Positions 9,590 through 47,105 of a stretch of DNA of 64,000 nucleotides are shown here, piece by piece (within the stretch, counting starts at the first letter, position 1; the number at the start of each line of letters is the position of its first letter). Made by a program: the position numbers and the translations under genes. The stretch lies in contig DFBH01000074.1 of NCBI GenBank assembly GCA_002366545.1, positions 1,033-65,032 of the forward strand, in the 5' to 3' direction. Source of the stretch: Candidatus Oleimmundimicrobium americanum (lineage in GTDB: Bacteria > Actinomycetota > Aquicultoria > UBA3085 > Oleimmundimicrobiaceae). Below the pieces are notes generated by a model that was not told where the DNA came from, made no database searches, and worked only from the letters and a program-made list of their open reading frames with translations.

Positions 9590-9681
9590 CCAATTTTCCC
9601 TACAATTTCGCTGTTCTAAACAAAGGAGGACTTTTTATCCCCTTTATTGAATCCATTTGACAGTTATTTCATTTTAAAGGA

Positions 9682-10596
9682 ATGCAAATGAAGTTTAAAA
9701 GAGCAAAAATTATTGTAAACCCGGCTTCAAACCACGGTGAAACCAAAAAGGTCTTCGGTAGAGTTAACGATTTTTTCAAGGGGAAGCTCGACTTCGACTT
9801 GGAGTTAACCGAAAAACCTAAACAGGCCATAGAGATGGCCAAAAAACTTCCCGACTACGATCTCGTCATAGCAGTGGGTGGCGACGGAACAATCTTTGAA
9901 ATAGTTAACGGTTTGGCATTAAGCAATAATCGAGAGACCGCTTTGGGGATTATCCCCACAGGCTCAGGTAACGATTTGGCAAGAATTTTAGGAACGCCAA
10001 AAGACATTACAAGAGCGTGCAATGAAATTTTGAACGGCCACACAAAAATGATCGACCTGGGGCTGGTAAATGGCGTATATTACGCAAATTCTCTCGGCAT
10101 TGGCTTCGACGCTCAAGTGGCTCACACGGCAAATAAGATAAAGGATGAGGTCAAGCGCTCAGGACTTCCTCTCTATTTGACGGCTTTGTTCAAGATACTT
10201 TTTAAAAATTATCACCCTTTTAAAATCTCAATAAAAATTGAGGAGGAGGATTTCTTCACGAAAAAGATCGTCCTGATTGTGGCGAATAATGGGATAAGTT
10301 ATGGTGGGGGCTTTAAAATCACGCCAAAAGCCAGAAACGATGACGGCCTGCTAAATGTTTGTTTGATTGATGAACTTCCGGCCTGGAAAGTCGTCCCCCG
10401 ATTACCCTTCGTGATAATCGGAAAACATGAGTGGATGAAATGCGCTCATACCTACCGAGCAAAAAAAATTATTGTGAGAGCTGAGGAGGAGGTCCTCCCC
10501 GCTCAACTGGATGGGGAATTGATAACGGACAATAACTTTTTAATTGAAATCGTGCCAAGAGCGCTTAAGGTCATCGTATCCAAGGAGGATGGATAA
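9682..10596 (+). CDS. YegS/BmrU-family lipid kinase (diacylglycerol kinase catalytic domain)
   Basis: 'AVGGDGTIFEIVNGL' and 'PTGSGNDLAR' DAGK_cat motifs. The stop overlaps the plsY start (TAATG). Confidence 0.75.
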   Translation: MQMKFKRAKIIVNPASNHGETKKVFGRVNDFFKGKLDFDLELTEKPKQAIEMAKKLPDYDLVIAVGGDGTIFEIVNGLALSNNRETALGIIPTGSGNDLARILGTPKDITRACNEILNGHTKMIDLGLVNGVYYANSLGIGFDAQVAHTANKIKDEVKRSGLPLYLTALFKILFKNYHPFKISIKIEEEDFFTKKIVLIVANNGISYGGGFKITPKARNDDGLLNVCLIDELPAWKVVPRLPFVIIGKHEWMKCAHTYRAKKIIVRAEEEVLPAQLDGELITDNNFLIEIVPRALKVIVSKEDG

Positions 10597-11240: not shown

Positions 11241-11360
11241 AAATATATCGAGAACACAAAAGTTAAAGGCGAGGATTATGCCATTTTCCTATCCTTAATA
11301 GATTGAATCCTACTCTTACTTCTAAAACCGGAGCCCAAACTATTCAGCTTGCAAGATCGA

Positions 11361-11768: not shown

Positions 11769-12161
11769 CCCCTTTAAAAAATATCAGGTTTATATGATTA
11801 TTCTATCTTTAAAAAAATAAAATGTCATTAACATAACGGCGCCATAACATACCAAATTTCTGAGAATCAAAATAATATTATCTTAATAACTCTTAGAGAC
11901 GGCCACTTTGTGAAGCTTTTCCCCATTTCCACAGTTTTATCCACAACATATTGAGGATAAAATCTAAAAATCACTATATATCGTACGTTGCTCGTAAGTG
12001 ACTTTCTAGTAAATAAATGCACAAAAGTAATATTATTAGCAATGGACCCGGAATATAAATACAAAGCATATAACTTCCTAATAGATAATTCCAAGACCTA
12101 CCGGTTCTTAAATATCAGTAGCCGAAATATAGGACCAAGAACGACCGGCAACCGCTCCCGG

Positions 12162-14858
12162 CTATTTACTCCCAACCTTATCTATTCTCACTGCACATAC
12201 CTTAAACTCGGGAATCTTTGATACCGGATCGAGTGCGGGGTTGGTGAGCATATTTATTGGAGATTCCTTGAAGTGGAAGGGCACAAATATGGTCCCCTTG
12301 GGTATGTGTGAAGTTATACGTGCTTTAACTTTTACTTTTCCTCGGCGCGAGGAAAGTTCGACCCAATCATTATCTTTTATTTTAAGTTTTTTAGCATCTA
12401 CAAAATTTATCTCAACTCTGGCTTCCTTGCAAACCTCATTAAGACCCATGGAACGCCTGGTCATCGTGCCGGTGTGAAAGTGATACAGAAGTCTTCCTGT
12501 GATTAGGATAAACGGATAATCTTTATCGGGCTGCTCAGCAGGTGCTTTGTATTCAACGGCATGAAACTTGCCCAGTCCCCGCGTAAATTTCGCTGTATGA
12601 AGAATCGGTGTCCCCTGATGCGTTGCATCCGGACACGGCCACTGAACACTTTCCTCGCTTACCCTTTCAAATATTATTCCACCATAGGTTGGGGTAATAC
12701 TTGCAATCTCATTGGTAATCTCACCAACCGCAGCGTAATTCATATCATAACCCATGGCCTTCGCCAAATTGGAGATTATCAGCCAATCCGGTCGGGAGTT
12801 GCCAACCGGGGCAATGGCCCTTCTTACTCTCTGAACTCTTCTTTCGGTATTTGTAAACGTTCCATCCTTCTCAGCAAAAGTAACTCCCGGCAACACAACG
12901 TCGGCAAATTCAGCCGTCTCAGTTAAAAACACATCCTGAACAACCAAAAAATCCAACTTCTTAAAAGCCTCTTTCACGTGGTTTAAATCGGGGTCCGAAA
13001 GCATCGGGTTTTCGCCCATAACATACATCGCTTTAACTTCGCCACGCAAAACAGCATCCATCATCTCGGTGGCAACTAACCCGGGCTTTTCTGGAAGCTT
13101 TACTCCCCAAACATCTTTACATTTCTTAATAATCCCCAAATCACAGATGTTTTGATATCCGCTCACACAACCGGGAAGTGCCCCCATATCACAAGCACCC
13201 TGAACGTTGTTTTGTCCGCGAAGCGGATTTACCCCCGTTCCCGGCCTCCCAATATTTCCGGTAAGCATCGCCAAATTGGCAACGGAGAGAACATTGTCTG
13301 TACCCGTAGTATGCTGAGTGATGCCCATGGAATAAAAGATTGCTCCTTTTTCGGCCGAAGCGAATAATCTTGCTGCCTCCCTTAAAGAATCAGCGGGAAT
13401 ACCTGAAATATTCTCAACTTCCTCGGGCGTATATTTTGAAACCGTCTTCTTTAACTCTTTATAATCTTCCGTTCGTTTATCGATAAAATCCTTATCTTCC
13501 AAGCCCTCTTCGATTATCACGTTCATAAGCCCGTTTAAGACGGCAACATCGGTTCCCGGTTTTTGTGAAAGCCACATATCAGCATACTCCGTCAGTCGAA
13601 TCTCTCTGGGATCAATTACGATAAGCTTTACCTCAAAATCGGAGACCGCCCTCTTCATCTCAAGAGCAACTATGGGATGATTTTCGGTGGTATTTGAGCC
13701 AATAACAAGAATCACATTGGCCTCGTGTATATCGGCGATAGAATTCGTCATCGCTCCGCTTCCAAATGCTTTGACCAGACCGGCCACGGTTGGAGCGTGT
13801 CACAAGCGAGCACAGTGGTCGATATTGTTTGTGCCAATCACCGCCCTCATAAATTTCTGCATCAGATAATTTTCTTCGTTGGTACACTTTGCTGAGGAAA
13901 GACCGGCAATCGCGTCAGCGCCGTGTTTTTTCTTTATCTTTGAAAACTTGTCTGCAACAGTTTTAATCGCCTCATCCCAAGAAACTTCAACAAGTTTCCC
14001 GTCCTTTCGAACCAACGGAGAAGTAAGCCTGTCGGGATGGTTCACAAAGTCATAACCAAAACGGCCTTTTACACAAGTATTCCCCTTATTCACACCGCTC
14101 TCGACATCGGCTGAAACACAAATAATCTCTCCGTTTTTGATTTGGAGTTCCAACTCACACCCACAACCACAATAAGGACAGACTGTCTTAACTTTCTCTG
14201 TCTCCCAAACTCGCCCCTTGTATCTGCTCATCTTCTCGGTTAAAGCACCGGTGGGGCAGGTTGATATACACTGTCCGCAAAGTTCACATTTTGTTTCAAT
14301 AAGTGACTTGTCATAAGGAGTTGTTACTACCGAATCAAAACCTCGATTTGCGAAAGTATACACTTTATTCTGTTGAATCTCTTCACAAATGCGAACGCAG
14401 CGACCGCAAAGGATGCACTTGTTTGGGTCTCTTTCAATCAAGGGATTATAGTCTTCTATGGTGTAGATATGTTTTTCACCTTTAAACCGATTCTCTTCTA
14501 TTCCCAATTCGTAAGCTAAATCTTGAAGTTGACATTGGCCGGCGCTCTCACAAGTCAAGCAACTTAACTCATGATCGGAAAGTAAAAGCTCAACTATCGT
14601 TCTCCGTATTTTATAGAGAGGAATGGTATTTGTCCTAACAGCCATTCCATCGCCAACCTTGGTTGCGCAGGCAGGCAAAAAATTCCTCGCCCCCTCAACT
14701 TCGACGAGACAAACTCTGCAGGCTCCATAAGACTTGAGCCGCGGATCGTGGCAGAGCGTTGGGATTTTTATTCCATTTTCTTTAGCAACCTCAAGTATGG
14801 TTTGACCTGGTTCAGCTTCAATTTTTTCTCCATTTATTGTCAAATTAATTTTAGACAT
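12162..14858 (-). CDS. fdhA: formate dehydrogenase alpha subunit, selenocysteine-containing (in-frame UGA at 13800-13802)
   Basis: The N-terminal ORF (13800..14858) ends '...[11 protein letters not shown]' at a TGA. The same frame continues '[21 protein letters not shown]...', which matches the FdhF-type 'CARV-U-HGPSVAGL' Sec active-site motif. The N-terminus has a NuoG-type 2Fe-2S plus 4Fe-4S region. The C-terminus has a molybdopterin oxidoreductase domain. Confidence 0.85.
13750..13799 (-). promoter_or_regulatory. putative bacterial SECIS element immediately 3' of the UGA-Sec codon
   Basis: The mRNA after UGA reads CACGCUCCAACCGUGGCCGGUCUGGUCAAAGCAUUUGGAAGCGGAGCG. It has CGCUCC/GGAGCG complementarity and a GGUCUG core resembling the fdhF SECIS apical region (from memory). 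The fold has not been computed. Confidence 0.4.
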
Positions 14859-15324: not shown

Positions 15325-17142
15325 CTACTTAGCAATATATATAGCATCGAACGGACAGTGCTGCATACAAATGCCACATTTTACACATTTGGTCACATCT
15401 ATTTCGTGTGGCTGTTTCTTTTCCCCGGTAATCGCTCCCATTGGACAATGTTTCTTACAAACTCCACATCCTCTGCACACATTCTCTTTAATTACATAGG
15501 CAATGAGCTCAGAACATACCCCCGCGCGACATCTTCCCTCTTTAACATGCTCCTCAAACTCTTCTTGAAAATACTCAAGCATCGTAAGAATTGGGTTGGG
15601 AGCAGTTTGCCCTAAACCACAAAGCGATGCGACCTTAACATCTCGAGCTAATTCTTCTAAAAGAACCAATTCCTTTTCGTCGCTCTCCCCCTTGGTCATC
15701 CTTTCAAGCATCTCGAGCATCCGTTTGGTTCCAACCCGACAAGGAACACATTTCCCACAGGATTCCTTCTGGGTAAAAGTCAAAAAGTATTTTGCTAAAT
15801 CAACTACACAGGAGCTTTCATCCATAACAACCATTCCGCCTGAGCCCACAATGGCTCCCGTTTGAGTCAAGGACTCATAGTCTATTGGCGTATCAAGAAA
15901 CTCAGTCGGGAGACACCCGCCGGATGGCCCGCCTATTTGAACCGCTTTGAACTTTTTATCGTCCTTTATCCCACCACAAATATCAAATATCACTTTTCTA
16001 AGAGTGGTACCCATGGGCACCTCGACCAATCCGCCGTTTTTGACCTTTCCTGTAACCGCAAAAATTTTGGTACCCTTGCTTTTCTCCGTCCCAATGGCAG
16101 CAAACTTGTCAGCACCGTTCGTTATTATCCAGGCAATATTTGCAAGCGTTTCAACGTTGTTAATGTTGGTGGGCTTACCCCAAAGCCCGGACTGTGCCGG
16201 GAAAGGCGGACGAATCCGAGGCATGCCTCTTTTACCCTCAATTGAAGCCATGAGGGCCGTCTCTTCTCCACAGACGAAAGCCCCGGCTCCTTCCTTCATT
16301 TTAATTTCAAAATCAAAAGAGCTGCCAAGAATGTTTTTGCCCAAAAAGCCCTTCTTTTTAGCATGCTCAACCGCAATCTTAAGTCGCTTAACAGCCAAAG
16401 GATATTCGGCCCTAACATATATATATCCCTCGGACGCACCAATAGCGTAAGCAGCTATCATCATTCCTTCAAGCACGCTGTGAGGATCGCCCTCCAAGAC
16501 ACTCCTATCCATAAATGCTCCGGGATCTCCTTCATCAGCATTACAAATAACATACTTCACAGCCCCGGGGGCTTTTTGGGCAAAACTCCACTTAAGACCG
16601 GTGGGAAATCCTGCCCCACCGCGACCCCTTAAGCCAGAGGCTTTAACTTCTTCAACAACCTCTTCGGGGGACATCTTGTTTAAAACCTTCTCAAGCGCTT
16701 TATATCCGCCACTCTCGATATAGTCATCGATTTCTTCGGGATTAATTTGTCCGCAGTTTCTAAGAACTATCCTATTCTGTTTTTGATAAAAGTTTATATC
16801 CTTATAAAGAGAAATCTTTTTACCGGTCCGCGAATCTTCATAGAGCAAATCCTCTACAACCTCGCCGCCAATTAAATGCTCCTCGACGATTCGAGACACG
16901 TTCTCCGCGGAAACCGTAGGATAAAAAACTCCCTCGGGCTGAATAACAACGATCGGACCCTGCTGACAAAAACCGTGACACCCGGTTTGAACAATATCAA
17001 TTTCAGAAATTTTCCGCTTTTTAAACTCCTCTTTAAAAGCGGATTTCACTTTTTCAGAGCCACTTAAAACACAGCCGGTCCCCGTACAAATAAAAACCTT
17101 GTTTTGCTTTTCTTTAACTTTTACTTTGACCACAATTTTCAC
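15325..17142 (-). CDS. NuoF-like NAD(P)H-binding flavoprotein subunit with C-terminal 2x[4Fe-4S] (HydB/HndC/FdhB type)
   Basis: 'GLRGRGGAGFPTGLKW' FMN/NADH motif, 'ESCGKCVPCRVGT' N3 cluster motif, an N-terminal thioredoxin-like Cys4, and two CxxCxxCxxxCP motifs at the C-terminus. Confidence 0.8.
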   Translation of the reverse strand: MKIVVKVKVKEKQNKVFICTGTGCVLSGSEKVKSAFKEEFKKRKISEIDIVQTGCHGFCQQGPIVVIQPEGVFYPTVSAENVSRIVEEHLIGGEVVEDLLYEDSRTGKKISLYKDINFYQKQNRIVLRNCGQINPEEIDDYIESGGYKALEKVLNKMSPEEVVEEVKASGLRGRGGAGFPTGLKWSFAQKAPGAVKYVICNADEGDPGAFMDRSVLEGDPHSVLEGMMIAAYAIGASEGYIYVRAEYPLAVKRLKIAVEHAKKKGFLGKNILGSSFDFEIKMKEGAGAFVCGEETALMASIEGKRGMPRIRPPFPAQSGLWGKPTNINNVETLANIAWIITNGADKFAAIGTEKSKGTKIFAVTGKVKNGGLVEVPMGTTLRKVIFDICGGIKDDKKFKAVQIGGPSGGCLPTEFLDTPIDYESLTQTGAIVGSGGMVVMDESSCVVDLAKYFLTFTQKESCGKCVPCRVGTKRMLEMLERMTKGESDEKELVLLEELARDVKVASLCGLGQTAPNPILTMLEYFQEEFEEHVKEGRCRAGVCSELIAYVIKENVCRGCGVCKKHCPMGAITGEKKQPHEIDVTKCVKCGICMQHCPFDAIYIAK

Positions 17143-17922
17143 CTATTTTAGATAAGAATGACAATAAAGTACTTCATTTCTCAACACTCTGACGGTCTTT
17201 ACAACATCCATTAATTCTTTATCAAAAGGATTCGCGATAACGGCATCCAAACCAACGGTTGCAAGCATGGCAAGATACGTTCTATCCAGAAGCGGTTTAG
17301 TCTCAGCGGGTGCTCCATTTGAAATATTGCTTAATCCGACGACCGTCTTAAGCGGAGGGTCATTTAATTGCCTGAACATCTTTATCGCCTCAATTGCCTC
17401 CTGAGCTTGTTCTTGAGCAACGGCGATCGGAAGGATTAACGGATCGAGATAGAGATTTTCCATCGGAACCCCTTTCTCCGCCATCTTCGCCATGATATCA
17501 ACCGCTATCGCCATCCTTTCATTGGCGTCACGCGGTATCCCTGTTTCAGTCATGGTCAATCCGATGACTTTTGCATTATATTTTGCGGCTAAACCCATCA
17601 TCGTCTCAAGCCGGTTTGGTTCCCCTGAAGCAGAGTTTATAATTGGCTGTTTCTTGCAAACCTTTAACCCCGCTTCCATGGCTTCAGCATTAGTGGTATC
17701 CAAACAAAGTGTTACATCAGCCACCTCTTGAACAGCATTTACAATCCACTCCATCATCTCCGTACCATTTTTGCGAGCCGGTCCTATGTTTATGTCTAAA
17801 ACGTTCGCTCCGGCCTCAATCTGAGCAACAGCTAAATCCTGAATCGGTTTTGGATCACGATCTTTCATCGCAGAACCGATTACTTTTGAAATAACATTAA
17901 TTTTCTCACCAATAATTAACAT
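17143..17922 (-). CDS. acsE: methyltetrahydrofolate:corrinoid iron-sulfur protein methyltransferase AcsE (pterin-binding)
   Basis: 'MLIIGEKINV...RDP.PIQ...LDINIGPA...LCLDTTN...INSAS...LYLDPLILP' is near-colinear with Moorella AcsE (from memory). Length is 259 aa. Confidence 0.75.
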   Translation of the reverse strand: MLIIGEKINVISKVIGSAMKDRDPKPIQDLAVAQIEAGANVLDINIGPARKNGTEMMEWIVNAVQEVADVTLCLDTTNAEAMEAGLKVCKKQPIINSASGEPNRLETMMGLAAKYNAKVIGLTMTETGIPRDANERMAIAVDIMAKMAEKGVPMENLYLDPLILPIAVAQEQAQEAIEAIKMFRQLNDPPLKTVVGLSNISNGAPAETKPLLDRTYLAMLATVGLDAVIANPFDKELMDVVKTVRVLRNEVLYCHSYLK

Positions 17923-19266: not shown

Positions 19267-19289
19267 TTAAATCCTCACATTCATTGATA

Positions 19290-19530
19290 TACAACCCGGC
19301 CTTACGGCCTTGATAGCTGATGGCCCAAACTATAGACAATCAGCAAATTAAAAAATAAAAGTGAAAAAAGAAAAACTATAGATAAAAATTTAAAATTGAA
19401 AACCCAGCCCTAAAGGGCAGCCCTTTAAACCAGCTTTCAAAATCAGCCCTTAAAGCAGCCCCTATCCGTTAGCCAAAAGCTAAAACATAAAGACCAATAA
19501 CTAATAGCCATCTGCTATATGCCATCAGCC
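19290..19530. repeat. low-complexity intergenic block with 5 tandem ~13-nt CAGCCCTTAAAG-like units
   Basis: CCCAGCCCTAAAGGG/CAGCCCTTTAAAC/CAGCTTTCAAAAT/CAGCCCTTAAAG/CAGCCCCTATCCG at about 19397-19460, flanked by GCTGATGGCC / GCCATCAGCCATTAGCC words. Confidence 0.5.
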
Positions 19531-19531
19531 A

Positions 19532-20590
19532 TTAGCCAAAATACTTCTCTCTCAAAGCCGAAGAAAGCTCTGACGTTAATCTGATGCTCTTTTCCGCCAA
19601 TTCTTCGATCATTGAGCCTGTACCACAATTTGGTGTAATTAAGCTCGCTTCAAGAAGCTTTGTTTTATTTATTCCCTTGTCGACCAGCAACTGGACTTTA
19701 TCTTCAAACTTATCGAGAATGCCCTCCAAGGTTTCATTCGCTATCGCATCGGGGCTTGGGTAGGTGGATGGGACTATCCCCCAGGCAAGAATTCCACCCC
19801 TATCTAAAAATTTATTTAGTTCCTGTGGGTAAAGGGACATGCTTTCAGTATGATCATATGCATCAAAACTTATAATGTTAACGGTAGTTTCCATTAAAAG
19901 GCTCCAGTCGGTGCGACCGCAACAATGAACGCCGCAAAGACCATCAACCGCATAAAAACACTCATTTAAATAGGAGATAACCTCTTCTTTATTTAATTTT
20001 ATATACGACGAACCGTAAGACTGAAGATAGGGTTCATCAAAAAAGATAACCGTTTTAACATCGGGAACCAATTTTTTAAATTCCCTCTCCTGCCATTTTG
20101 CCTTCATGGTAAGCGTTTTTATTATGGCGTCCCTTAAAAGGTCGTTGTAAAGAACCGCTTGTTTATTTTGGTCCGTAACGGTTAAGCCAAAACTAATCGG
20201 TCCGGTTAACTGGCCCTTGAGCATAACCAAATCACTTGGCAGATGTTTCCTCAATATATCCAACATGGTGTGAAGCCCTCGAGCATAATCAGCAGATATC
20301 GCGAAATAATCCAAATCTTCAGCCAGAAATCTATCGTAGAACTTCTCAAGCTCCCAAACCAAATTTTCTCTTGCTTCCAAATGAATTTTCTTCTTTTCTT
20401 CATCTATCCTTACCCCAGGCATGCCCTCTGAAATCTGAACACACATACTCTCCTTAAAAGAGAGGTTGGGGAGTTGAGGCCACACCGGAATCTGCGGAGT
20501 ATTTTTAAGAACCACTTCACAAGCTTTAACTGCATCGATATGTGGCATGCTACCAACGGTCATCGGAAGACAACGAGGTTTAAACTCCAT
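19532..20590 (-). CDS. MetE C-terminal-domain-like / URO-D superfamily zinc methyltransferase-like protein
   Basis: Candidate Zn ligand pattern His/Cys/Glu/Cys: 'GVHCCG', 'FFDEPYL', 'TPNCGTG'. Length is 352 aa. It lies last in the hdrC-hdrB operon. Confidence 0.45.
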   Translation of the reverse strand: MEFKPRCLPMTVGSMPHIDAVKACEVVLKNTPQIPVWPQLPNLSFKESMCVQISEGMPGVRIDEEKKKIHLEARENLVWELEKFYDRFLAEDLDYFAISADYARGLHTMLDILRKHLPSDLVMLKGQLTGPISFGLTVTDQNKQAVLYNDLLRDAIIKTLTMKAKWQEREFKKLVPDVKTVIFFDEPYLQSYGSSYIKLNKEEVISYLNECFYAVDGLCGVHCCGRTDWSLLMETTVNIISFDAYDHTESMSLYPQELNKFLDRGGILAWGIVPSTYPSPDAIANETLEGILDKFEDKVQLLVDKGINKTKLLEASLITPNCGTGSMIEELAEKSIRLTSELSSALREKYFG

Positions 20591-22014: not shown

Positions 22015-22055
22015 AAAAACCTCTTTAGTCGGTAGTCTGTTTTTAGTCAAATTAA

Positions 22056-22300
22056 AAAATAAAAATTTATAACGATATAGAAAAATTTAAAATTTAAAAC
22101 CAAATCACAAAAGATAAACTTCTTAAAATGTTTTTAAAAACTTTTTTAATTTTTATCTATAGTTTTTCGTTTTTCATTCTCCATTTTTCACTTAACTCTA
22201 CCCCATACCCGTTTTTGCTCTCTGCTCTAACTATATTTTTCCTGGCAGCTGACAGCTGGTGGCTGTTTTTACCCTATACCCTTATACCCGTTACCTTTAT
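22056..22300. repeat. low-complexity AT-rich intergenic block upstream of hdrC with shared word modules
   Basis: TTAAAATTTAAAA words, CTCTCTGCTCTAAC, CCCTATACCCTTATACCCGTTACC (shared with other blocks), and the GTCGGTAGTC module at the hdrC 5' end. Confidence 0.45.
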
Positions 22301-23218
22301 TTAGGGTCTGGGCAAAAGGCCCGCCTTCTCAACTATCTCCGGCACAATCTCTTCCCACTCAATAGCCATAATGTGTACGCCCGCCACACCTTTTATCTCT
22401 TTAACTTGATCGATAATATCTATACAAATGTTTACGCCTTCTTCTTTAGCTTTTTCTTTTCCGGCAACAGTCATCCGCTCAACAATTTTGTCGGGAACAT
22501 CCATCCCCGGCACATTGTTCTTCATATATTTAGCCATACCTGCAGATTTCAAAGGAGCAACACCGGCAAGTATGAAAACTTTCTCGTGGAGACCAAGCTC
22601 CCGAACCATTTCCATCCACTTTGAAAACTTTTCAACGTTATAAACAACTTGCGTCTGAACAAAGTCAATACCGGCTTTGACTTTTTTTGCAAGACGTAAC
22701 ACTCTGAATTCAAAAGGCTCGGAAAAGGGATTTTCAGCCGCCCCTATAAAGAAGTGAGGCTCTACTTTTATCTCCTCGCCACATTGAAATTTCTTTTCAT
22801 CCCTCATGTCCTTAACCATCTTAATAAGCTGAATGGAATCCAAATCAAAAACATTTTTTGACTGGGGATGATTGCCAAATTTTTGATGGTCCCCCGTGAG
22901 ACAGAGAAGATTCTTTACCCCCAAAGCCGAAGCCCCTAAAAGATCACTTTGTATCGCTATCCGATTCCTGTCGCGACAGGTCATTTGAATTATGGGCTCG
23001 ATACCCCTCGATGCCAACATGCTACCGGCAGCAATTGAAGACATCCGGACAATTGCCGTCTGACAGTCGGTTATGTTAACCGCATCAGCATAGCCTTTTA
23101 AAGTTTCAGCCTTCTTATAAACAACTTCAGCACTGACACTTTTGGGGGGACCGAGCTCAGCGGTTACCGCAAAATGTCCCGCACATAAAATTTTCTCAAG
23201 ATTGCTTCCCGATTTCAC
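22301..23218 (-). CDS. metF: 5,10-methylenetetrahydrofolate reductase MetF
   Basis: TIM-barrel MTHFR family signature: 'ELGPPK...ADAVNITD...MTCRDRN...LLGA..LGVKNLLCLTGD'. Confidence 0.85.
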   Translation of the reverse strand: MKSGSNLEKILCAGHFAVTAELGPPKSVSAEVVYKKAETLKGYADAVNITDCQTAIVRMSSIAAGSMLASRGIEPIIQMTCRDRNRIAIQSDLLGASALGVKNLLCLTGDHQKFGNHPQSKNVFDLDSIQLIKMVKDMRDEKKFQCGEEIKVEPHFFIGAAENPFSEPFEFRVLRLAKKVKAGIDFVQTQVVYNVEKFSKWMEMVRELGLHEKVFILAGVAPLKSAGMAKYMKNNVPGMDVPDKIVERMTVAGKEKAKEEGVNICIDIIDQVKEIKGVAGVHIMAIEWEEIVPEIVEKAGLLPRP

Positions 23219-27072: not shown

Positions 27073-28422
27073 TTATGCGCTTCGACTTTTAAGATAAGCG
27101 GGGATATCTCCGGCCTCCCGTGGGCCAACTTCTATTTTCCAATCCGGGAGTTCTTCTTCCAGTTCACCGCTTATTTGAGCTACGCATCCCGGTATTATCA
27201 ATTTTCTGTGTTTAACTTTGTCGGTAATCCCACAACGCTTCATGAACGGCCCGATACTTTCGGGCACAAATTTACCGGCTCCCCAAGCAGTTAAAACCGA
27301 TAATCCTTCCACGTCCATTATGCAAATCCAAGATGGAATTTTGCTCGCCTCAACCTCACCTGAAACGGTGAAATAAGTTAAGGAGAAATTGGTGGTAAGA
27401 AGCACCGGGGAATCCTCATCCGGTTCCCCGATGGGATAGATTCCCTCTTCAACCTGCATTGGCTTCTGTGGATCGGTATAGATATTTTGCCTTAAGACAT
27501 ACAGTGGAAGTGCCTTCCAGGCTTCGAGGTCGCTTAAGACGATAATCCCTGCATATTTCATGATACCAACGCCGGCAGCCACCGCTTCCATGTAAGGATC
27601 ATCATACATCTCACAAGGAAAGGTTATTATCGGATACCCAAGGGGTTTAAATTTTTTCTTCAAAGCCGCACGCCTTATAAAAGTAGCATCTCTTAAACTG
27701 TCTTTTATATTTCTTGAACCGGGGTCCAACACTATATCTTTGATCCCCTGTGCGGTTACTTTTTCTACCAACTCGGAAAGAATGTTTAAATCTTTAGCCG
27801 CAACCGCCAAAGGACAATTCTCCTCTTTGGCAAGGGCAGCCATTTGCTCAAAGTTGCCTTCATTTGCCGCATAAATAAGAGGTTTGGTCTTAGCGCAAAC
27901 CGAAAGAGCAGCCTTCATCATCTCGGAATTGTCGGTTATTAACACCAAAGGAAACTCGGTTCCCATGGCTTTCTTAACAAGCTCGACAAATTTAGCCGAA
28001 TCATTTGAAGACGATTTAACTGCCACCAAATCAGCCCGAAGAAATTGACCTACTCTCTCAAATTGAGAACTCTTTAACTGAGCAAGTTTTTCACCGATTT
28101 CCGACTCGCTCATTCCATCATCTACAAGAACAGCAAAGCCCGGCTGATGATAAAAGGTTTTTTCGTGACGAAAAAGCACCGCCTCCTCACCAATTTTTAA
28201 GGCCTTATCGCCAACACCTATCGTAACAAGGCGGATAGGAGGAGCCGAAGCCTCGGATAGCTCGGCTTTGGTTTCTTCGGATACATAAGGACACGCATCC
28301 AATTGTGCTTTTCCCATCGCAAGTTTCATGGCAAAGGCAAGACAAGTGGGAACACCACATTCCCCGCAATTTTTTTGAGGTAATTTTTTGTAAATATCAA
28401 GTCCGGTTAACGCCATATACAT
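27073..28422 (-). CDS. acsC: corrinoid iron-sulfur protein large subunit AcsC (CdhE-like)
   Basis: N-terminal 'CGECGVPTCLAFAMKLA...CPY' [4Fe-4S] motif characteristic of AcsC. Length is 449 aa. RBS is AAAGGAGAG. Confidence 0.85.
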   Translation of the reverse strand: MYMALTGLDIYKKLPQKNCGECGVPTCLAFAMKLAMGKAQLDACPYVSEETKAELSEASAPPIRLVTIGVGDKALKIGEEAVLFRHEKTFYHQPGFAVLVDDGMSESEIGEKLAQLKSSQFERVGQFLRADLVAVKSSSNDSAKFVELVKKAMGTEFPLVLITDNSEMMKAALSVCAKTKPLIYAANEGNFEQMAALAKEENCPLAVAAKDLNILSELVEKVTAQGIKDIVLDPGSRNIKDSLRDATFIRRAALKKKFKPLGYPIITFPCEMYDDPYMEAVAAGVGIMKYAGIIVLSDLEAWKALPLYVLRQNIYTDPQKPMQVEEGIYPIGEPDEDSPVLLTTNFSLTYFTVSGEVEASKIPSWICIMDVEGLSVLTAWGAGKFVPESIGPFMKRCGITDKVKHRKLIIPGCVAQISGELEEELPDWKIEVGPREAGDIPAYLKSRSA

Positions 28423-28424
28423 CT

Positions 28425-28763
28425 CTCCTTTTAGTCAATTTTAGTTTAAAGTTAAAGGTTTAAAGCTGATAGCTCGTTCCCTTACATTCACTCGATGGCC
28501 AGTGGCCCACTCCCCGCCCATTGGCGGGTTCGCTCAATAGCTGACTCTCTACTCCATCAGTCGGTAGTCTCTTAGTGGGGAGTCGGGAGCTTGTTGGCCA
28601 GATTGCTAGTTTTGCTATACTCTATATTCCATACTCCATATTCTGCTCGCTCTCTGCTCTATGCTCCATGCTCTTTTCACTTTTAAATTTGCAATTTGCA
28701 TTTCTTTTTTACCCTTAACCCGTTACCCTATTAGTCGGGAGTCTCTTAGTTGGGAGTCGGGAG
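28425..28763. repeat. low-complexity modular intergenic block (short tandem 'word' repeats, strongly strand-asymmetric)
   Basis: Contains CAGTCGGTAGTCTCTTAGTGGGGAGTCGGGAG (twice), CCATACTCCATATTC, CTCTATGCTCCATGCTC, GCAATTTGCATTTC, CCCTTAACCCGTTACCC. The plus strand is almost G-free for more than 100 nt. Confidence 0.6.
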
Positions 28764-28863
28764 TTATCTGGTTTCTTAGCTTCTTGGCTACGTAGCTACT
28801 TGGTTTCTAAGTTTCTAAGTCGCTATGTTTCTATGTCACTATGTCGCCAGTTCCCTTTACCCT
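28764..28863 (-). repeat. dispersed intergenic repeat element, copy 2 (between acsB and acsC)
   Basis: Reverse complement of copy 1 with internal word duplications (TTTCTAAG x2, CTATGT x3). GC hairpin at 28885-28906 then abuts the acsB stop. Confidence 0.7.
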
Positions 28864-28916
28864 CTCAACTTTCTATCTGCCATTCGCCCCGCCAGAGGCG
28901 GGCAGGCATCTACTAA

Positions 28917-33072: not shown

Positions 33073-35618
33073 TTGGCGACTCCTTCTTTTGAAACACTCA
33101 CAGCAATTAACCGATCTTGCGGGCTCTTTAATTTTAAATCTATGCCATCGCTCGATAGAACACCTTGTTTATTGTGGCAACTGGGCATAAAAAACATCCC
33201 CTTGGGCAAGAAATCAAGTATCTTCGCCGAGGTTATAACCTTGCCCCGTCTCGATTTAACCGTGACTTTGCAGCCATCCTCAAGCCCCAAAGACGCAGCA
33301 TCATCTGAATTAAAAACAACATAATCTCCCATGTTTGGTTCAAGCTCAGATAGTTTGGAATTTTTTGTTCTAACTCCATCATAGAACCCAAACGTTGTTT
33401 CTCCAACAATTAAAGTATAAGGATATTTTTTATCAGGCTCTTCACCGGAAATCTTGGGCTCCACTAAGGTGAACTTATATGTATTTTTTTCGATTTTCTT
33501 TGGGATAGAAACCAGAGACTTTATTTCCTTGGCAATCTCCTTTTCAGAAGAGTAGTCCATGGTGTAATTTACTTTTTTGGACAAGGCGACTACCGTTTCC
33601 CAATCAGCTTGGACCAAAGGTTCAATGGCTGTCCTAACTTCTTTTGTCCGATATTCCATATTAACAATGGTCCCATTGCTTTCAGCTAAAGTTACGCCCG
33701 GCAACACAACATCGGCCAATTTTGCAGTTTCCGTCAAAAAGGTATCTTGAACCACCAGGAAATCTAAGGATGAAAACGACTTAGCCACGCTGGAAGAGTT
33801 GGGAAGTTGAGCAACCGGATCTGCCCCAATTATATACATTCCAAGAATGGATGAACCCATTCCGTCCAGCATCTCCTTAATAGAAAGTCCGGCTTCTTTG
33901 GAAAGCTTTACTCCCCAGGCCTTTTCAAAATCGCTCCCGGCTTCATCCGCTTTTCTTACACCCGGATAAAATTCAGCCAACGCTCCCATGTAAACCGTGC
34001 CCCACAGATTAGAAGAGAGAAGGCACGGAAGAACGCTCGCTTTGGTTTTACCTGTTAAAAGAGAGATGTCGGCAATCAATTCCATGGTTTGAGGGCTTAC
34101 CGTCTCGGCCCCAAAGATTATAACCGTCTTCTTCCCTTCGCCATAGAGCTTTGCGGCTTCCTTTAAAACATCTTTAGAAATTCCCGACTCTCTTTCCACC
34201 GTTTCCATCTTCAATTTGCCAAGAGATTTCTTTAAGTCCTCAAATTTACCGCATTTCTTGGCAAATTCTTCATCATAAACCTTACCGTCAAGTAACTCTT
34301 TCAAAAGCCCGCTTAAAACAAACTCATTGGAGCCGGCCATTGACTGAATGTGTATATCAGCTTTCTCAGAAATTTTTGTCCTTCCGGCATCTACAACTAC
34401 CAGCTTTGCCCCGTTTGAAAGCGCTCTTTTTACTGCTACACCCACGCGAGGATAGGCCACTGTAACATCCGCGTTTACGAGCAAGAGAGCATCGGCTTCT
34501 TCAATGTTTTCCATTGAAACAACGGCTCCATCTCCCAGCGCTTCGTATAAATCAACCAAAGCGGGAAAACCGAGAAGTCTGGCGGAACTATCAATGTTAT
34601 TCGTCCCAATCCCGGCCCTTAAAAACTTTTGGAATAAGTAAGCAACCTCGTTTGTGTTCCCCGCACCAATAAAACCACCAATCCTATTTGCCCCATGGGC
34701 TTTTCTTATATCAAGAAGACGCTCTGCCGCAAACTCAAAGGCCTCTTCGTAGGTGCTCTCAGTTAAAACCCCGTTCTTTTTAATTAAAGGCTTGGTAATT
34801 CGCTTGGAGCTTTCCACAAAATCCCATCCAAATCTGCCCTTTGCGCAAAGAAAATCTCCGAGGCTCTCGCCGGTTGCTCTCATAATCTGCCCATCTACGG
34901 TACCAAATACGAGGTCACAGCCACAACCGCAATAAGAGCAGACCGTTTTAGTCTCTTCCATCTCCCATTCTCGCCCACGAAAACGCCTATCAACTTCAAG
35001 CAGCGCACCAACGGGACAAACCGCAAGACAACTGCCGCAGAAATCACAGCCCGATTCCTGCAGGGGCTTATCCATTGGTGTCGCCACTTTGGTAACCATA
35101 CCCCGCTTTACAAAATCGATAACATCTGCCCCCTGTGTTTTGCAAATTCCCACACATCGTCCGCACAAAATACAGAGATTGTAATTCCTCTCTATAAAAG
35201 GATTGCTTCTGTCAATCTCGTAACCGGGATCCTTCATTGAAAAAGCGGTTTTCTCAATCCCAAGCTCATAAGCATACTTCTGAAGCTCACAAGCCCCGTT
35301 TTTATCACAACTCATACAATCACCGGGATGATTTGAAAGTATCAGCTCCAGAACAAAACGTCTGGCTTCCCGAACTTTCTCGGTATCAGTATCAATCACC
35401 ATTCCATCCTTAACTTTCCGAGCGCATGAGGCCACGAGCCCTTTGGCCCCCTCAATCTCGACCAAACAAACTCTACACGACCCCGTACTGGGCAAGCATT
35501 CACAATAACAGAGATGGGGGATGTCTATCCCCGCCATCTTGGCCGCCTGAATGATGAGTATCCCTTCAGGAACCTTTGCTTCTTTTCCATTTATCATTAC
35601 GGTGATTTGCTCACTCAA
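33069..35618 (-). CDS. NuoG/FdhA-like molybdopterin-oxidoreductase-family subunit lacking the catalytic Sec/Cys (Leu at that position)
   Basis: The N-terminus has 2Fe-2S plus 4Fe-4S motifs like fdhA. The central motif is 'GTNNIDSSARL-L-GFPALVDL', where fdhA has 'CARL-U-HAPTVAGL'. It overlaps acsA by 4 nt (ATGA). Confidence 0.7.
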   Translation of the reverse strand: MSEQITVMINGKEAKVPEGILIIQAAKMAGIDIPHLCYCECLPSTGSCRVCLVEIEGAKGLVASCARKVKDGMVIDTDTEKVREARRFVLELILSNHPGDCMSCDKNGACELQKYAYELGIEKTAFSMKDPGYEIDRSNPFIERNYNLCILCGRCVGICKTQGADVIDFVKRGMVTKVATPMDKPLQESGCDFCGSCLAVCPVGALLEVDRRFRGREWEMEETKTVCSYCGCGCDLVFGTVDGQIMRATGESLGDFLCAKGRFGWDFVESSKRITKPLIKKNGVLTESTYEEAFEFAAERLLDIRKAHGANRIGGFIGAGNTNEVAYLFQKFLRAGIGTNNIDSSARLLGFPALVDLYEALGDGAVVSMENIEEADALLLVNADVTVAYPRVGVAVKRALSNGAKLVVVDAGRTKISEKADIHIQSMAGSNEFVLSGLLKELLDGKVYDEEFAKKCGKFEDLKKSLGKLKMETVERESGISKDVLKEAAKLYGEGKKTVIIFGAETVSPQTMELIADISLLTGKTKASVLPCLLSSNLWGTVYMGALAEFYPGVRKADEAGSDFEKAWGVKLSKEAGLSIKEMLDGMGSSILGMYIIGADPVAQLPNSSSVAKSFSSLDFLVVQDTFLTETAKLADVVLPGVTLAESNGTIVNMEYRTKEVRTAIEPLVQADWETVVALSKKVNYTMDYSSEKEIAKEIKSLVSIPKKIEKNTYKFTLVEPKISGEEPDKKYPYTLIVGETTFGFYDGVRTKNSKLSELEPNMGDYVVFNSDDAASLGLEDGCKVTVKSRRGKVITSAKILDFLPKGMFFMPSCHNKQGVLSSDGIDLKLKSPQDRLIAVSVSKEGVAK

Positions 35619-36157: not shown

Positions 36158-38052
36158 GTAGCCACCTCCTGCTTACCGGTAGGAGTAGATTTTCGTTCAA
36201 ACTGCCTCACAACACAACCGGTCGGGCATACTCCTATACAAGCCCCGCACTTTTCACAATATGATAAATCGATATAGAATCTGTCTCGCTCTTCCACAAT
36301 CGCGTCAAAAGCACACGCCTCCTTGCAAAGGCCGCAAAGAAGACAATCCTCCTCGTTTATCCGGTAATGGCCAAGTGCCGCACATTGCCCAGCCGGACAA
36401 TATTTATCCCTTATGTGAGCTTCATACTCATCTCTAAAATATTTAATGGTTGAAAGCACGGGATTGGGTGCACTCTTACCTAAACCACATAGAGCAGTTT
36501 CTTGAATATGTTTGCCGATGCTTTCCAAACGCTCAATATCTCCTTCTTCACCCTTGCCTTCGACAATTCTACTTAAAATCTCAAGCATCTCATGTGTCCC
36601 AATCCTGCAAGGCGGACATTTCCCGCAGGATTCCACCTGCGTGAAAGAGAGAAAATATCTTGCTAATTCAACCATGCAGTCGGACTCATCCATCACGACA
36701 AGTCCACCGGAGCCCATCATAGCCCCAGCTTCTGTTAATGAATCAAAGTCAACGAATAAATCCAAATATTCTTTTGGAAGACAACCGCCGCTAGGCCCTC
36801 CTGTCTGAACAGCTTTAAACTCTTTATCTCCCAAGATGCCACCGCCTATATCATAGACAATTTCCCGAATGGTTATTCCCATGGGAACCTCAATAAGACC
36901 AGTGTTCTTCACTTTTCCGGTAAGAGCAAATATTTTGGTTCCCGGAGAACCCTTCGTGCCTATGGAAGTGTACCAATCCGCTCCCTTAATTATTATTGGG
37001 GGAACATTAGCAAAGGTTTCAACATTATTTAACACGGTGGGTTTATCCCATAGCCCTCTCTCCACAGAACGAGGAGGAGTGGTTCGAGGCATTCCCCTTT
37101 TGCCCTCGATAGAAAACATGAGTGCCGTCGATTCTCCACAAATGAAAGCTCCCGCCCCACGTTTTATTTCCAAATCGAAATCAAAACCACTCCCAAGGAT
37201 ATTTTCACCCAAAAGACCAATCTCTCTCGCTTGGTTAATGGCTATTGTTAGATTATCAACCGCCAAGGGATATTCTTGTCTTACATATATAAATCCCTCT
37301 TTGCAATTGCCCAGAGCATAGGCTCCTATTATCATGCCTTCGATGACAGAATGAGGATCACCCTCCAAAACACTTCTATCCATAAAGGCCCCCGGGTCAC
37401 CTTCGTCACCGTTGCAAACAATATACTTTACGTCACCTTTTGTTCTTCGACCGCCTTCCCACTTTCTTCCCGCAGGAAAACCTGCCCCACCTCGACCTCT
37501 TAAATTAGATTTTTTAACCTCTTTTATCACTTCTTCCGGGGTCATATCATTTAAAACTTTTGCCAACGCTTCATAGCCACTGGCCACTATGTAATCTTCT
37601 ATATTGATAGGATCAACATGGCCACAATTCCTTAAAACTATCCTATGCTGTTTACCATAAAAGGAAATTTCCTCTTCTTTAACAGCAAGTTCGCCGATGA
37701 CAGGATCAACCACTTGCAACCGATCAACGACCTTGCCGCGATTTATTGTAAGGTCAACTATTTTCGCCGCATCAAATGGATCAACCTTTTGATAAAAAAC
37801 ATCTAAGGGCTCCACAATTACAACAGGACCTTTTTCGCACAATCCCTGGCAACCCGTGGGTCTTATCTCAAAATCGATGCCTTGTTTGACGGCTTCCGCT
37901 TTGAAGGCCTCAACAACCTTTTGTGCACCGGAAGCGCGGCATCCTGTCCCGCTGCAGACCCGAACTATCGTCTTTTTCTGCTTCGCTCTTTCGCTACATA
38001 TTTTTTTTCTCAAGACACTTAGTTCATTAGGGCTTTTAAACTTACTCATCAT
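36154..38052 (-). CDS. NuoF-like NAD(P)H-binding flavoprotein subunit with C-terminal 2x[4Fe-4S]
   Basis: 'NLRGRGGAGFPAGRKW', 'ESCGKCPPCRIGT', two C-terminal ferredoxin motifs. The probable start is ATG 38052 (RBS AAGGAAG, 8-nt overlap with the upstream nuoE-like stop) rather than 38082. Confidence 0.8.
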   Translation of the reverse strand: MMSKFKSPNELSVLRKKICSERAKQKKTIVRVCSGTGCRASGAQKVVEAFKAEAVKQGIDFEIRPTGCQGLCEKGPVVIVEPLDVFYQKVDPFDAAKIVDLTINRGKVVDRLQVVDPVIGELAVKEEEISFYGKQHRIVLRNCGHVDPINIEDYIVASGYEALAKVLNDMTPEEVIKEVKKSNLRGRGGAGFPAGRKWEGGRRTKGDVKYIVCNGDEGDPGAFMDRSVLEGDPHSVIEGMIIGAYALGNCKEGFIYVRQEYPLAVDNLTIAINQAREIGLLGENILGSGFDFDLEIKRGAGAFICGESTALMFSIEGKRGMPRTTPPRSVERGLWDKPTVLNNVETFANVPPIIIKGADWYTSIGTKGSPGTKIFALTGKVKNTGLIEVPMGITIREIVYDIGGGILGDKEFKAVQTGGPSGGCLPKEYLDLFVDFDSLTEAGAMMGSGGLVVMDESDCMVELARYFLSFTQVESCGKCPPCRIGTHEMLEILSRIVEGKGEEGDIERLESIGKHIQETALCGLGKSAPNPVLSTIKYFRDEYEAHIRDKYCPAGQCAALGHYRINEEDCLLCGLCKEACAFDAIVEERDRFYIDLSYCEKCGACIGVCPTGCVVRQFERKSTPTGKQEVAT

Positions 38053-44831: not shown

Positions 44832-44944
44832 AATAAAACCCCTCCCCCGGTTGTTGAGATAAACGTGAACATGAATAAATTTATTTTAGTTTGACTACTC
44901 AAGAATAACAACAATTTTGCCTTCAACGATAATAATTTAAAGGT

Positions 44945-44976
44945 AACTGGCAAAAATAGCTAAATAACTGGCAAAA
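44945..44976. promoter_or_regulatory. direct repeat AACTGGCAAAA x2 with 21-bp periodicity upstream of fhs; candidate LytTR-regulator binding site
   Basis: Two exact 11-mers sit 21 nt start-to-start, between lytR and the fhs promoter region. LytTR proteins typically bind 9-10-bp direct repeats with about 12-bp spacers. Confidence 0.3.
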
Positions 44977-44984
44977 TTTGAGGA

Positions 44985-47037: not shown

Positions 47038-47105
47038 GCTTTATCCTCGAATTATAAATAGTATTATTATACAATATTTCATATCTATCTGCTCGGAGGT
47101 AAATC

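Follow-up and report, generated by a model that had tools for sequence, protein, structure and literature searches.

The window, a stretch of 64,000 nucleotides from Candidatus Oleimmundimicrobium americanum (contig DFBH01000074.1), has a base composition of 43% G+C and carries about 90% of its genes on the minus strand. According to Pfam, these genes include a Wood-Ljungdahl cluster (acsB, acsC, CODH, MTHFR and Hdr/Nuo-like genes) as well as lysC-asd, dnaX-ybaB-recR and others. The nearest named matches of the AcsC and LysC proteins, at 88% and 83% identity respectively, belong to 'Candidatus Oleimmundimicrobium sp.', the further matches being uncultured Actinomycetota; a literature search found no paper mentioning Oleimmundimicrobium. 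The subject of this work is the spacers between these genes. About half of those of at least 100 nt are assembled from a common set of degenerate 7- or 8-nt words in tandem, and the same spacers also contain a 25-nt GC hairpin, an AT-rich palindrome and composite blocks of 90-170 nt. The flagged spacer between acsB and acsC is described below from its sequence, Tandem Repeats Finder (TRF), the repeat families and a fuzzy module map, its modules being given in 5' to 3' order on the transcribed minus strand.

28417-28916, minus strand: the acsB-acsC spacer, 500 nt, with acsC starting at 28416.
28886-28910, minus strand: hairpin C.
About 28866-28880, minus strand: TGGCAGA word.
About 28850-28862, minus strand: GGGTAAAGGG.
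28755-28852, minus strand: 8-mer array of family FamA.
28733-28763, minus strand: CTCCCGA array (module D).
28709-28728, minus strand: GGGTAAC array.
28686-28701, minus strand: GCAAATT, two units.
28649-28673, minus strand: GAGCAKA array.
28615-28641, minus strand: GGAGTAT array.
28590-28613, minus strand: unique core AAAACTAGCAATCTGGCCAACAAG.
28559-28589, minus strand: second copy of D.
28505-28530, minus strand: GC hairpin CCCGCCAATGGGCGGG.
28417-28500, minus strand: gene-specific leader and Shine-Dalgarno (SD) sequence of acsC.

An identical 500-nt allele is present in an independent assembly (L005). The module types found here and in the other spacers are the following.

Tandem arrays of 7- or 8-nt words: 2-7 degenerate units, in several unrelated word classes.
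Hairpin C: 25 nt, GC-rich, GATGCCTG-CCCGCC-NNN/NNNN-GGCGGG, three copies in the window.
FamA: degenerate 8-mer array of 82-94 nt, four copies in the window.
FamB: AT-rich imperfect palindrome made of an A-rich heptamer arm, a short hairpin and a T-rich heptamer arm, five arms in the window.
D: the module CTCCCGACTCCCCACTAAGAGACTACCGACT, a CTCCCGA array, three long copies plus short ones.
First composite block of the 90-170-nt class: GGGTAA-FamA-CTCCCGA.
Second composite block of the same class: GAGCAKA-GGAGTAT-AGCAATCTGGCCAACAA-CTCCCGA.

Mosaic spacers have a stop codon upstream of them and, downstream, the conserved gene-specific leader (50-130 nt) of the next gene or a convergent 3' end; their modules follow a positional grammar. 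TGGCWGA-type arrays, with or without hairpin C, stand directly 3' of stop codons, hairpin C being placed within or adjoining them. GGGTAWN arrays, FamA and D tend to make up a single block, GAGCAKA, GGAGTAT, AGCAATCTGGCCAACAA and D are the members of the second block, and ACTACCGACT frequently adjoins the SD sequence.

Comparison of the spacers with one another revealed extensive sharing of words. With k = 12, the 12-mers common to different spacers occupy 324 positions when they point the same way with respect to transcription and 51 when they point in opposite ways, against about 5 in dinucleotide shuffles and about 3 and 2 in matched coding segments, so that sharing exceeds that of the shuffles approximately 70-fold. 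The spacers are strongly autocorrelated at lag 7 (z 9.8-10.5) and lag 8 (z 6.7-7.9), harmonics appearing at 14 and 21; period 3 is the only one seen in coding DNA. Together with the tandems of 7- or 8-nt words (2-7 units) that TRF detected in the flagged regions, where they are also part of longer dispersed families, these results bear out the view, reached in a sequence-only reading of the window, that eight intergenic regions share one vocabulary. That reading had located the word regions correctly but not their boundaries, the true spacers being 6832-7085, 7277-7687, 19267-19531, 22015-22300, 28417-28916, 48248-48607 (with modules only in 48518-48607), 53498-53813 and 61232-61414. It had also staked its case on the words not being confined to the window, and they do recur, on at least seven other contigs of the clade; the vocabulary is seen, almost always in intergenic DNA, in the organisms of loci L001, L003/L016, L004 and L006-L011, and the lag-7 z values of the clade loci range from 7 to 12.

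The words are placed and oriented with respect to genes. Over 161 kb, about 95% of them are intergenic and they are co-oriented with the flanking genes 96:15 (about 6:1), L007, whose modules are reversed, being an exception. On the fuzzy module map every multi-word module of the window falls in a spacer, all of them in plus orientation in 6832-7687, beside plus-strand genes, and all in minus orientation elsewhere. Micro-tandems cover 7.7% of the bases of co-directional spacers, 2.8% of those of convergent ones, 0% in the four divergent ones and 0.41% of coding DNA; they are present in 22 of 47 co-directional, two of five convergent and none of the four divergent spacers. Along the spacer, coverage is 11.5% in the first 50 nt after the stop codon, 7.6% in the middle and 4.8% in the last 50 nt. 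Spacers free of words are found at 455-591, 5249-5496, 9590-9681, 11241-11360, 11769-12161, 44832-44984, 47038-47105 and 57382-57532. As heptamers cycle through the reading frames, selection for stop codons in all frames was also considered, and was rejected with 7.26 sense-strand stops per 100 nt against 7.28 expected.

The comparison set comprised 16 loci (L001-L016) obtained by exact-pattern scans and protein-anchored look-ups, with about 270 kb of clade sequence, and 4-fold sites were used as the silent-site reference. A FamA-core scan of genome contigs yielded one locus and a D-module scan of metagenomes five; the collections scanned evidently hold few of the clade's genomes. In the outgroup L012 (AcsC 74%), which has the same gene order, the spacers measure 93, 11 and 0 nt against 500, 286 and 265 nt in the window, and no lag-7 signal is detected. 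The mosaics are therefore clade-specific insertions into an operon that was ancestrally compact.

Within the clade, the turnover is visible between near-identical strains. At 4-fold sites, L002 and the window agree to 98-99.4%, and their alignment over 21 kb has almost no gaps. Missing from the acsB-acsC spacer of L002 are a hairpin-C block of 34 nt and a FamA+D block of 141 nt, the latter with GGGTAA(A)GGG direct repeats at its borders, and the TGGCWGA array is 24 nt longer there than in the window. Positions 28727-28916 are remodelled in L002, and 28417-28726 differ by about 1% (98.7% identity over 310 nt). The border repeats of the 141-nt indel are resident array words rather than a clear target-site duplication. 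Across the clade the length of this spacer is 500, 347, 292, 249 or 104 nt. In L016 (93-95% protein identity), the orthologous ybaB-recR spacer carries wholly different modules (hairpin C, W1 and FamB) and has only the SD region in common with the window, the lysC-asd spacer has nothing in common with it but the GGGTAA word and the beginning of FamB, and the trailer of the GGDEF gene reads W1 twice, hairpin C, then GGAGTAT words, with the hairpin at a different array position than in the window. Gene-specific leaders and SD regions are kept between the window and its relatives while the modules differ. Modules also relocate: the 150-nt composite at 28534-28683 has a counterpart of 89% identity in another spacer, at L004 19016-19171, the 4-fold sites of the two genomes being 47-66% identical. 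Likewise, spacer positions aligned with L003 are about 90% identical, against 59-68% at 4-fold sites. The recombination-prone repeat scaffold that the sequence-only reading had offered as a fallback fits these data well, since the differences between nearly identical strains are indels of whole modules with shared words on either side, and modules occupy non-orthologous places in relatives.

Judged from these alignments, the arrangement of the modules turns over extremely fast while their sequence is constrained. That module sequences are kept far above the neutral rate implies that something recognizes them sequence-specifically; and the combination of a free arrangement with a constrained sequence (about 90% identity at saturation of silent sites) favours such recognition over simple junk. 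The same observations bear on the idea that the mosaics are a pure mutational by-product, in which slippage would generate micro-duplications in unconstrained AT-rich spacers with neither copying between loci nor function. Orthologous arrays do vary in unit number and sequence, as the TGGCWGA arrays after acsB in L002, L003 and L011 illustrate, and one period is common to unrelated words. However, the same 12-mers and blocks of 80-150 nt occur at unrelated loci and in other species, which largely refutes this explanation, modules are conserved above silent sites, and ordinary spacers of the same genome are without words; we regard it as highly improbable.

The reading that we favour, with a probability of about 0.55, is that the spacers have been colonised by clade-specific small non-coding repeat modules residing in transcribed DNA behind stop codons, and resembling the repetitive extragenic palindromes (REPs) and bacterial interspersed mosaic elements (BIMEs) on the one hand and the short tandemly repeated repetitive (STRR) sequences on the other. 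It starts from what is observed directly, namely insertion into the spacers of transcription units, orientation with the genes, module indels at shared words, relocation and sequence constraint. Arrays would lengthen and shorten by slipped-strand mispairing, whereas hairpins and composite blocks would be gained, lost or copied between loci via recombination or templated copying, the shared words providing homology. Recognition of the words, by a host factor or by the copying machinery, would hold them close to the family consensus. Single module copies would be dispensable for the host operons and, by analogy with REPs, their likeliest effect would be to adjust read-through, the stability of 3' ends or internal initiation locally.

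Several points weigh against this reading. No transposase, recombinase or other copying machinery was identified in the clade sequence examined, and no clear terminal inverted repeats with target-site duplications mark a mobile unit. The link to 3' ends rests on few divergent spacers (0/4 vs 22/47, P ~0.08), and transcription of the spacers is assumed. Since about 90% of the genes share one strand, orientation to transcription cannot be fully separated from orientation to replication, and the modules of L007 are reversed. Finally, word conservation, positional grammar (TGGCWGA after stops, ACTACCGACT at the SD sequence) and the 6:1 orientation could equally reflect a function for the host.

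One such function, which we consider unlikely, would be that of a binding platform, the 7/8-nt arrays serving as registers for a multimeric single-strand nucleic-acid binder with about 7 nt per subunit, for clade-wide control at the post-transcriptional or nucleoid level. The binder might be a cold-shock/OB-fold protein or a TRAP/HutP-type ring protein recognising spaced NAG/NGG triplets. The sequence-only reading had put forward binding platforms as one possibility, a weaker idea with which module conservation, implying sequence-specific recognition by something, is compatible. The conservation of the words far above the neutral rate, the strong orientation bias and the positional grammar agree with this function, as do the in-phase purine triplet that many words carry on the RNA strand (for example UGGcugaUGGcauaUAGcaga) and the 25 occurrences of UAG at lag 8, against 3 at control lags. 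There are precedents in the literature: Csp, S1 or CsrA were proposed as partners of the TAACTGA direct repeats of marine Beggiatoaceae by MacGregor 2015, who cites CspB binding one heptamer per protein (PMC4679880), and the multicopy elements of Geobacter metallireducens, which occur mostly in pairs and are drawn as strand-switching loops, were read as sites for global regulators (Aklujkar 2009, PMC2700814). However, no single motif accounts for the 7-nt phase, which many unrelated triplets share (ACT, AGC, CAG, ATG, GGG and TTT), orthologous spacers exchange module types wholesale with their flanking genes unchanged, the outgroup runs the same operon without modules, and no candidate protein was found. 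Moreover, the complete module series in 7277-7687 meets the stop codon of a convergent gene, with no co-oriented gene after it, and therefore has no gene to serve.

Folding was analysed for the individual module types. Hairpin C, of which nine conserved copies were collected across the window, L016, L006 and L009, folds with -17.7 kcal/mol (z -1.8) and has no U-tail. One copy, at L006 5704-5739, lies within the last codons of the predicted coding sequence 4951-5739 and appears to have supplied its C-terminus and stop codon. FamA folds better on the strand antisense to the gene (z -0.9 to -4.6) than on the sense strand, and its outer ends are complementary (GGGAGCTGG...CCAGATAACTCCC), a trait that bears on a comparison with miniature inverted-repeat transposable elements (MITEs), units of 50-500 nt defined by terminal inverted repeats and a target-site duplication; with compensatory change in 0 of 17 pairs, a conserved structured FamA RNA is unproven. 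The T-arm of FamB contains the only promoter-like match that recurs among spacers, TTTTCA-16-TATAGT. Sigma-70-type promoters and intrinsic terminators as general spacer features were rejected, with 21 promoter-like matches against 19 in shuffles and no U-tail after hairpin C. Two further proposals were discarded: the GAGCAKA-GGAGTAT...CTCCCGA composite does not form a long hairpin (z 0.1 sense, -0.5 antisense), and the spacers are not decayed palindromes with a 5' purine arm and a 3' pyrimidine arm (half-to-half purine difference 0.025, p 0.17).

These structures invite comparison with mini-transposons, that is, REP/REPIN-like elements moved as single-stranded DNA by a REP-associated tyrosine transposase (RAYT) or an IS200/IS605-type tyrosine transposase, whose orientation would follow the replication fork and would seem linked to genes only through the co-orientation of genes with replication. 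A 25-nt GC-rich palindrome in nine conserved copies, a FamA that folds better on one strand, as a strand-specific single-stranded DNA or RNA substrate would, a window with about 90% of its genes on one strand and the reversed modules of L007 are all compatible with this origin. Against it, all of the at least 10 modules in 6832-7687 flip with the local plus-strand genes although the surrounding region is minus-strand, a consistent unpaired GTAG/CGTC tag is missing from hairpin C (1 of 9 copies), most words are not palindromic, and no RAYT gene was seen in about 270 kb, where not all open reading frames (ORFs) were scanned. We consider this origin improbable.

The sequence-only reading had further claimed an extreme strand asymmetry, with every region nearly C-free and purine-rich over 60-150 nt on the transcribed strand. 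Pooled over 37 co-directional spacers (12.6 kb), this strand contains A.337, G.236, T.274 and C.154. Its GC skew and purine content (+0.21 and 57%) match those of the coding strand (+0.19 and 55%), so that the asymmetry was overstated; an 80-nt segment contains on average 11.7 C in spacers, compared with 13.9 in coding DNA. Only four of the eight regions have a run of 60 nt or more in which C does not exceed 5%: 188 nt at 22056-22243, the longest of the window, 91 nt at 53500-53590, 63 nt at 28671-28733, and 83 nt at 6964-7046, this last one being T-rich with only 34% purine. In the remaining four regions the C-poor stretch measures only 27-50 nt, the 95th percentile of coding DNA being 63 nt, and C-rich modules (CTCCCGACTCCCCACT, the 8-mer array) lie on the same transcribed strand. 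The skew appears because co-oriented purine-rich words are seen against a genome whose sense strands are rich in G and purines: the compositional strand bias is a by-product of module co-orientation and of this genome-wide excess. Strand-skew arguments, as this case teaches, need calibration against the coding-strand skew of the same genome.

From that asymmetry it had been suggested that the spacers might act as C-free, GGA-rich, unstructured leaders or trailers titrating a CsrA-like protein. Local purine-rich, C-poor runs of 63-188 nt do exist in three to four regions, and GGA is present in some words (AUGGAGUAUGGAAU). In the spacers as a whole, however, GGA occurs at chance frequency (z 0.1), AGGA (z -4.9) and GAGG (z -3.5) are depleted, and the enriched motifs are ACTCC, CTCC and GACT. 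Far from being unstructured, the average spacer has slightly more structure than its shuffles (mean z -1.1 sense, -1.6 antisense). No mosaic spacer matches an Rfam family, Csr/Rsm sponge RNAs included, at gathering thresholds or at E<=1, and the skew is the same as in coding DNA. To our knowledge, CsrA is not typical of Actinomycetota. A protein sponge is thus scarcely credible here.

The proposed colonisation by small repeat modules has parallels in several known systems. In cyanobacteria, STRR heptamer arrays with embedded small dispersed repeats have reportedly been described, in work attributed to Mazel (1990) and Elhai (2008). These resemble the window in their intergenic tandem heptamers of several classes, their 20-30-nt hairpins inside arrays and their nested insertions; comparable nesting is seen in the clade, where TGGCWGA arrays enclose hairpin C and a GTCATTGCGAG element contains a nested hairpin. 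The window differs in its host, an Actinomycetota near Ca. Oleimmundimicrobium, in its short (2-7 units) and degenerate arrays with an additional 8-nt class, and in its recurring composite blocks with positional grammar. The BOX elements of Streptococcus pneumoniae (boxA-boxB(n)-boxC) and the mycobacterial interspersed repetitive units (MIRUs) are likewise modular intergenic or operon-internal tandem units, co-oriented with transcription and of strain-variable copy number. Their units, however, measure 45-100 nt instead of 7-8 nt, and no sequence similarity was seen by eye.

Like the window modules, REPs and BIMEs of Enterobacteria and Pseudomonas are short, non-coding, plausibly transcribed extragenic repeats 3' of genes, between co-directional or convergent genes, and form variable mosaics with other short motifs, their consensus being kept while their locations vary by strain. 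Published descriptions place REPs downstream of coding regions, between unidirectional and convergent ORFs, at strain-variable locations (PMC3733652; bioRxiv 10.64898/2026.03.23.713779), with an unpaired GTAG or CGTC tag at one end as criterion (PMC3733652). A 20-40-bp, GC-rich, imperfect and multicopy palindrome of this kind is represented by hairpin C, one module type of about ten, and only one of its nine copies has such a tag (28886-28910, GTAG), the other eight having GCTGATGCCTG, TTAATACCTG or similar. Micro-tandems share the REP-like location between co-directional or convergent but not divergent genes, with only four divergent spacers available. In contrast to REPs, most window modules are non-palindromic 7/8-nt tandem arrays, and they have one strong orientation relative to genes instead of forming alternating inverted pairs.

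The TAACTGA repeats of Beggiatoaceae are also intergenic heptamer direct repeats, in 2-6 copies, gene-oriented, patchy in phylogeny and of unexplained function (PMC4679880). They involve a single word, located mostly immediately upstream of starts, whereas the window has many words, densest after stops (11.5% vs 4.8%). The Geobacter elements are families of four to five tandem 7-/8-nt units dispersed in intergenic DNA; their words differ from ours, some are intragenic, and neither mosaic order nor strain turnover was described (PMC2700814). We take their paired loop arrangement to be, by analogy, that of FamB, FamA and the hairpins of L013 and L015. Tandem dimers of the STRR1-3 words CCCCAGT, TTGGTCA and CAACAGT, of TAACTGA and of the Geobacter words GGACCGG, MTYCTGA and GTTGCTYN number zero in 204 kb, and membership of the window words in these three families was rejected. 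The mosaics appear to belong to a known, functionally unexplained kind of repeat, with words of their own.

A lag-7 signal extends to distant lineages. It reaches z 13.9 in L013 (AcsC 65%), where spacers are hairpins of complementary heptamer arrays (z about -3), and z 5 in L015 (AcsC 61%), a metagenome-assembled genome (MAG) classified as 'Firmicutes'; it is absent from L012 and L014, which are higher-GC relatives. Some of the window's words also occur in L013 and L015. The window is therefore one case of a patchy, poorly documented phenomenon. Complementary-arm hairpin spacers were noted at 328-431, 2364-2450, 9916-10000, 17245-17360, 19667-19767 and 20206-20301 in L013 and at 755-860 in L015, with arms such as GAGCAGA GAGCGGA GAGCATA ... 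CTCTAAG CTCTAAG CTCCGAG and fold z values down to -4 to -6.6 on both strands. Two hairpin repeat types, GTCATTGCGAG...GCAATCTC and CCCTCCCC...GGGGAGGG, are found in relatives but not in the window (L004 16053-16310, L008 3328-4289, L009 5423-5950, L013 15011-15357 and L001 ~1520-1560); near 3665 in L008, a CCCGCCAATGGCGGG hairpin is nested in the loop of the GTCATTGCGAG...GCAATCTC type.

A broader and rather speculative proposal, to which we give little credence, is that heptamer/octamer arrays, often as complementary hairpin arms, form a general and largely unrecognised class of bacterial intergenic elements with one mechanism, based on an oligomeric single-strand-binding factor or a copying enzyme with a register of about 7 nt. 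This class would span cyanobacterial STRRs, the Beggiatoaceae TAACTGA repeats, the Geobacter elements, the present clade, L013 and the Firmicutes MAG; the words GAGCAGAGAGC, AGCTGATGGCT and CAGCTGTCAGCTG would be shared by horizontal spread, and the mosaics would be functional recognition platforms selected for sequence and free in arrangement. Short-period intergenic repeats such as STRR, TAACTGA and the Geobacter elements have been known for decades with no accepted function or mechanism of spread. The present data set is unusually informative in offering one operon with and without repeats, and nearly identical strains with module indels as their only differences. It also supplies defined oligonucleotides and pairs of alleles for experiments, and the spacers provide hypervariable strain markers for a subsurface, hydrocarbon-associated lineage of Actinomycetota.

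The other mosaic spacers of the window are composed as follows.

6832-7085, plus strand: spacer from the DUF1015 gene to the DUF6485 gene (flanks by Pfam), all modules plus; whole-spacer sense-strand fold z -2.96.
6841-6867, plus strand: GGAGTAT array.
About 6886-6908, plus strand: GC hairpin.
About 6905-7054, plus strand: FamB palindrome, T-arm at 6997-7035.
7061-7070, plus strand: ACTACCGACT, then the SD sequence AAGGAGG.
7277-7687, plus strand: spacer 3' of the DUF6485 stop, up to the stop of the convergent gene, with the complete module series.
7279-7310, plus strand: TGGCTGA array.
7305-7329, plus strand: hairpin C.
7368-7387, plus strand: GGGTAAC array.
7394-7466, plus strand: FamA.
7531-7540, plus strand: ACTACCGACT.
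7588-7645, plus strand: FamB T-arm.
7653-7683, plus strand: D.
7688-9589, minus strand: convergent DUF2207 gene (Pfam), bounding the spacer 7277-7687.
19267-19531, minus strand: spacer from a gene of 352 amino acids (aa) to a cbiA-like gene; sense-strand fold z -3.25.
About 19505-19531, minus strand: TGGCTGA/TGGCATA/TAGCAGA array directly 3' of the stop.
About 19409-19461, minus strand: GGGCTG words and hairpin.
19364-19402, minus strand: FamB T-arm with the TTTTCA-16-TATAGT promoter-like match.
19267-19330, minus strand: gene-specific leader, conserved in L003, L004 and L011.
22015-22300, minus strand: spacer from MTHFR to a ferredoxin-like gene, whose true start is at about 22014.
22270-22300, minus strand: GGGTAWN array directly 3' of the MTHFR stop.
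22242-22262, minus strand: CAGCTG words.
About 22213-22230, minus strand: GAGCAGAGAGC.
22162-22193 and 22061-22099, minus strand: FamB A-arm and T-arm, respectively.
22027-22036, minus strand: ACTACCGACT adjoining the SD sequence.
48518-48607, minus strand: 3' trailer of the GGDEF / Fe-hydrogenase-like gene, the modular part of the spacer 48248-48607.
48582-48606, minus strand: hairpin C directly 3' of the stop.
48534-48584, minus strand: five to seven GGCWGRT-type heptamers (TRF period 7, 7.3 copies), then GGGTATAGAGCATAG.
53498-53813, minus strand: spacer from lysC to asd.
53800-53819, minus strand: GGGTAAC word overlapping the lysC stop.
53720-53792, minus strand: FamA.
About 53700-53715, minus strand: CCGGCAGG hairpin.
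53619-53655, minus strand: GCAAATT array.
53591-53607, minus strand: TGGCAGA, two units.
53563-53585, minus strand: GGGTAAT array.
53537-53562, minus strand: FamB A-arm fragment.
61232-61414, minus strand: spacer from ybaB to recR, the true start of recR being at about 61231.
About 61395-61412, minus strand: GCGGACA/GCGAATA/GCAAATA words.
About 61372-61392, minus strand: GGGTGAT/GGGTAAA.
61290-61362, minus strand: FamA.
61268-61298, minus strand: D, then the SD sequence.

Mechanical ORFs of 70-250 aa run antisense across mosaic spacers, at 7049-7411 (minus), 22259-22624 (plus) and 53611-54366 (plus) in the window and at 9630-9842 (minus) in L002. These are repeat artefacts that are easily mis-annotated as genes; the mosaics, besides producing such spurious ORFs, are likely break points of metagenome assembly. 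The non-repeat part of the GGDEF-trailer spacer (about 48250-48520, minus) is by eye nearly identical to L016 16460-16744, the 4-fold sites being 59-68% identical. It contains several hairpins with a terminator-like GTGGGCAAGCCACACATTTTTTT at its end, has no Rfam match, and corresponds to a 69-aa gene call in L016; it may be a conserved small gene or small RNA. At about 4290-4450 (plus), in a convergent spacer of 460 nt without word modules, a GC-rich segment of about 160 nt is closed by GTGGCTCTC...GAGAGCCAC and precedes an A-run; it looks like a structured RNA, with no Rfam match. The apparent 272-nt spacer at 59662-59933 (minus) is probably a small 4Fe-4S ferredoxin gene, as L016 has a 91-aa Fer4 gene call at the syntenic place between POR subunits.

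On the minus strand at 12162-14858, the ORFs 13800-14858 and 12162-13787 share a frame and are split by a TGA (stop 13800-13802) within ...IDHCARL*HAPTVAGL..., which we take to be the motif where alpha subunits of formate dehydrogenase carry their selenocysteine. Directly after it, at 13747-13805, comes a SECIS_3-like element (E 2.7e-6, 42 bits, under the gathering score of 63), and the region probably encodes one selenoprotein of about 895 aa split by ORF calling. Two pairs of blocks about 20.8 kb apart share 73-75% DNA identity (12843-12956 with 33654-33767, and 16439-16560 with 37310-37431); the window therefore contains paralogous formate-dehydrogenase / NADH-dehydrogenase-like gene sets.

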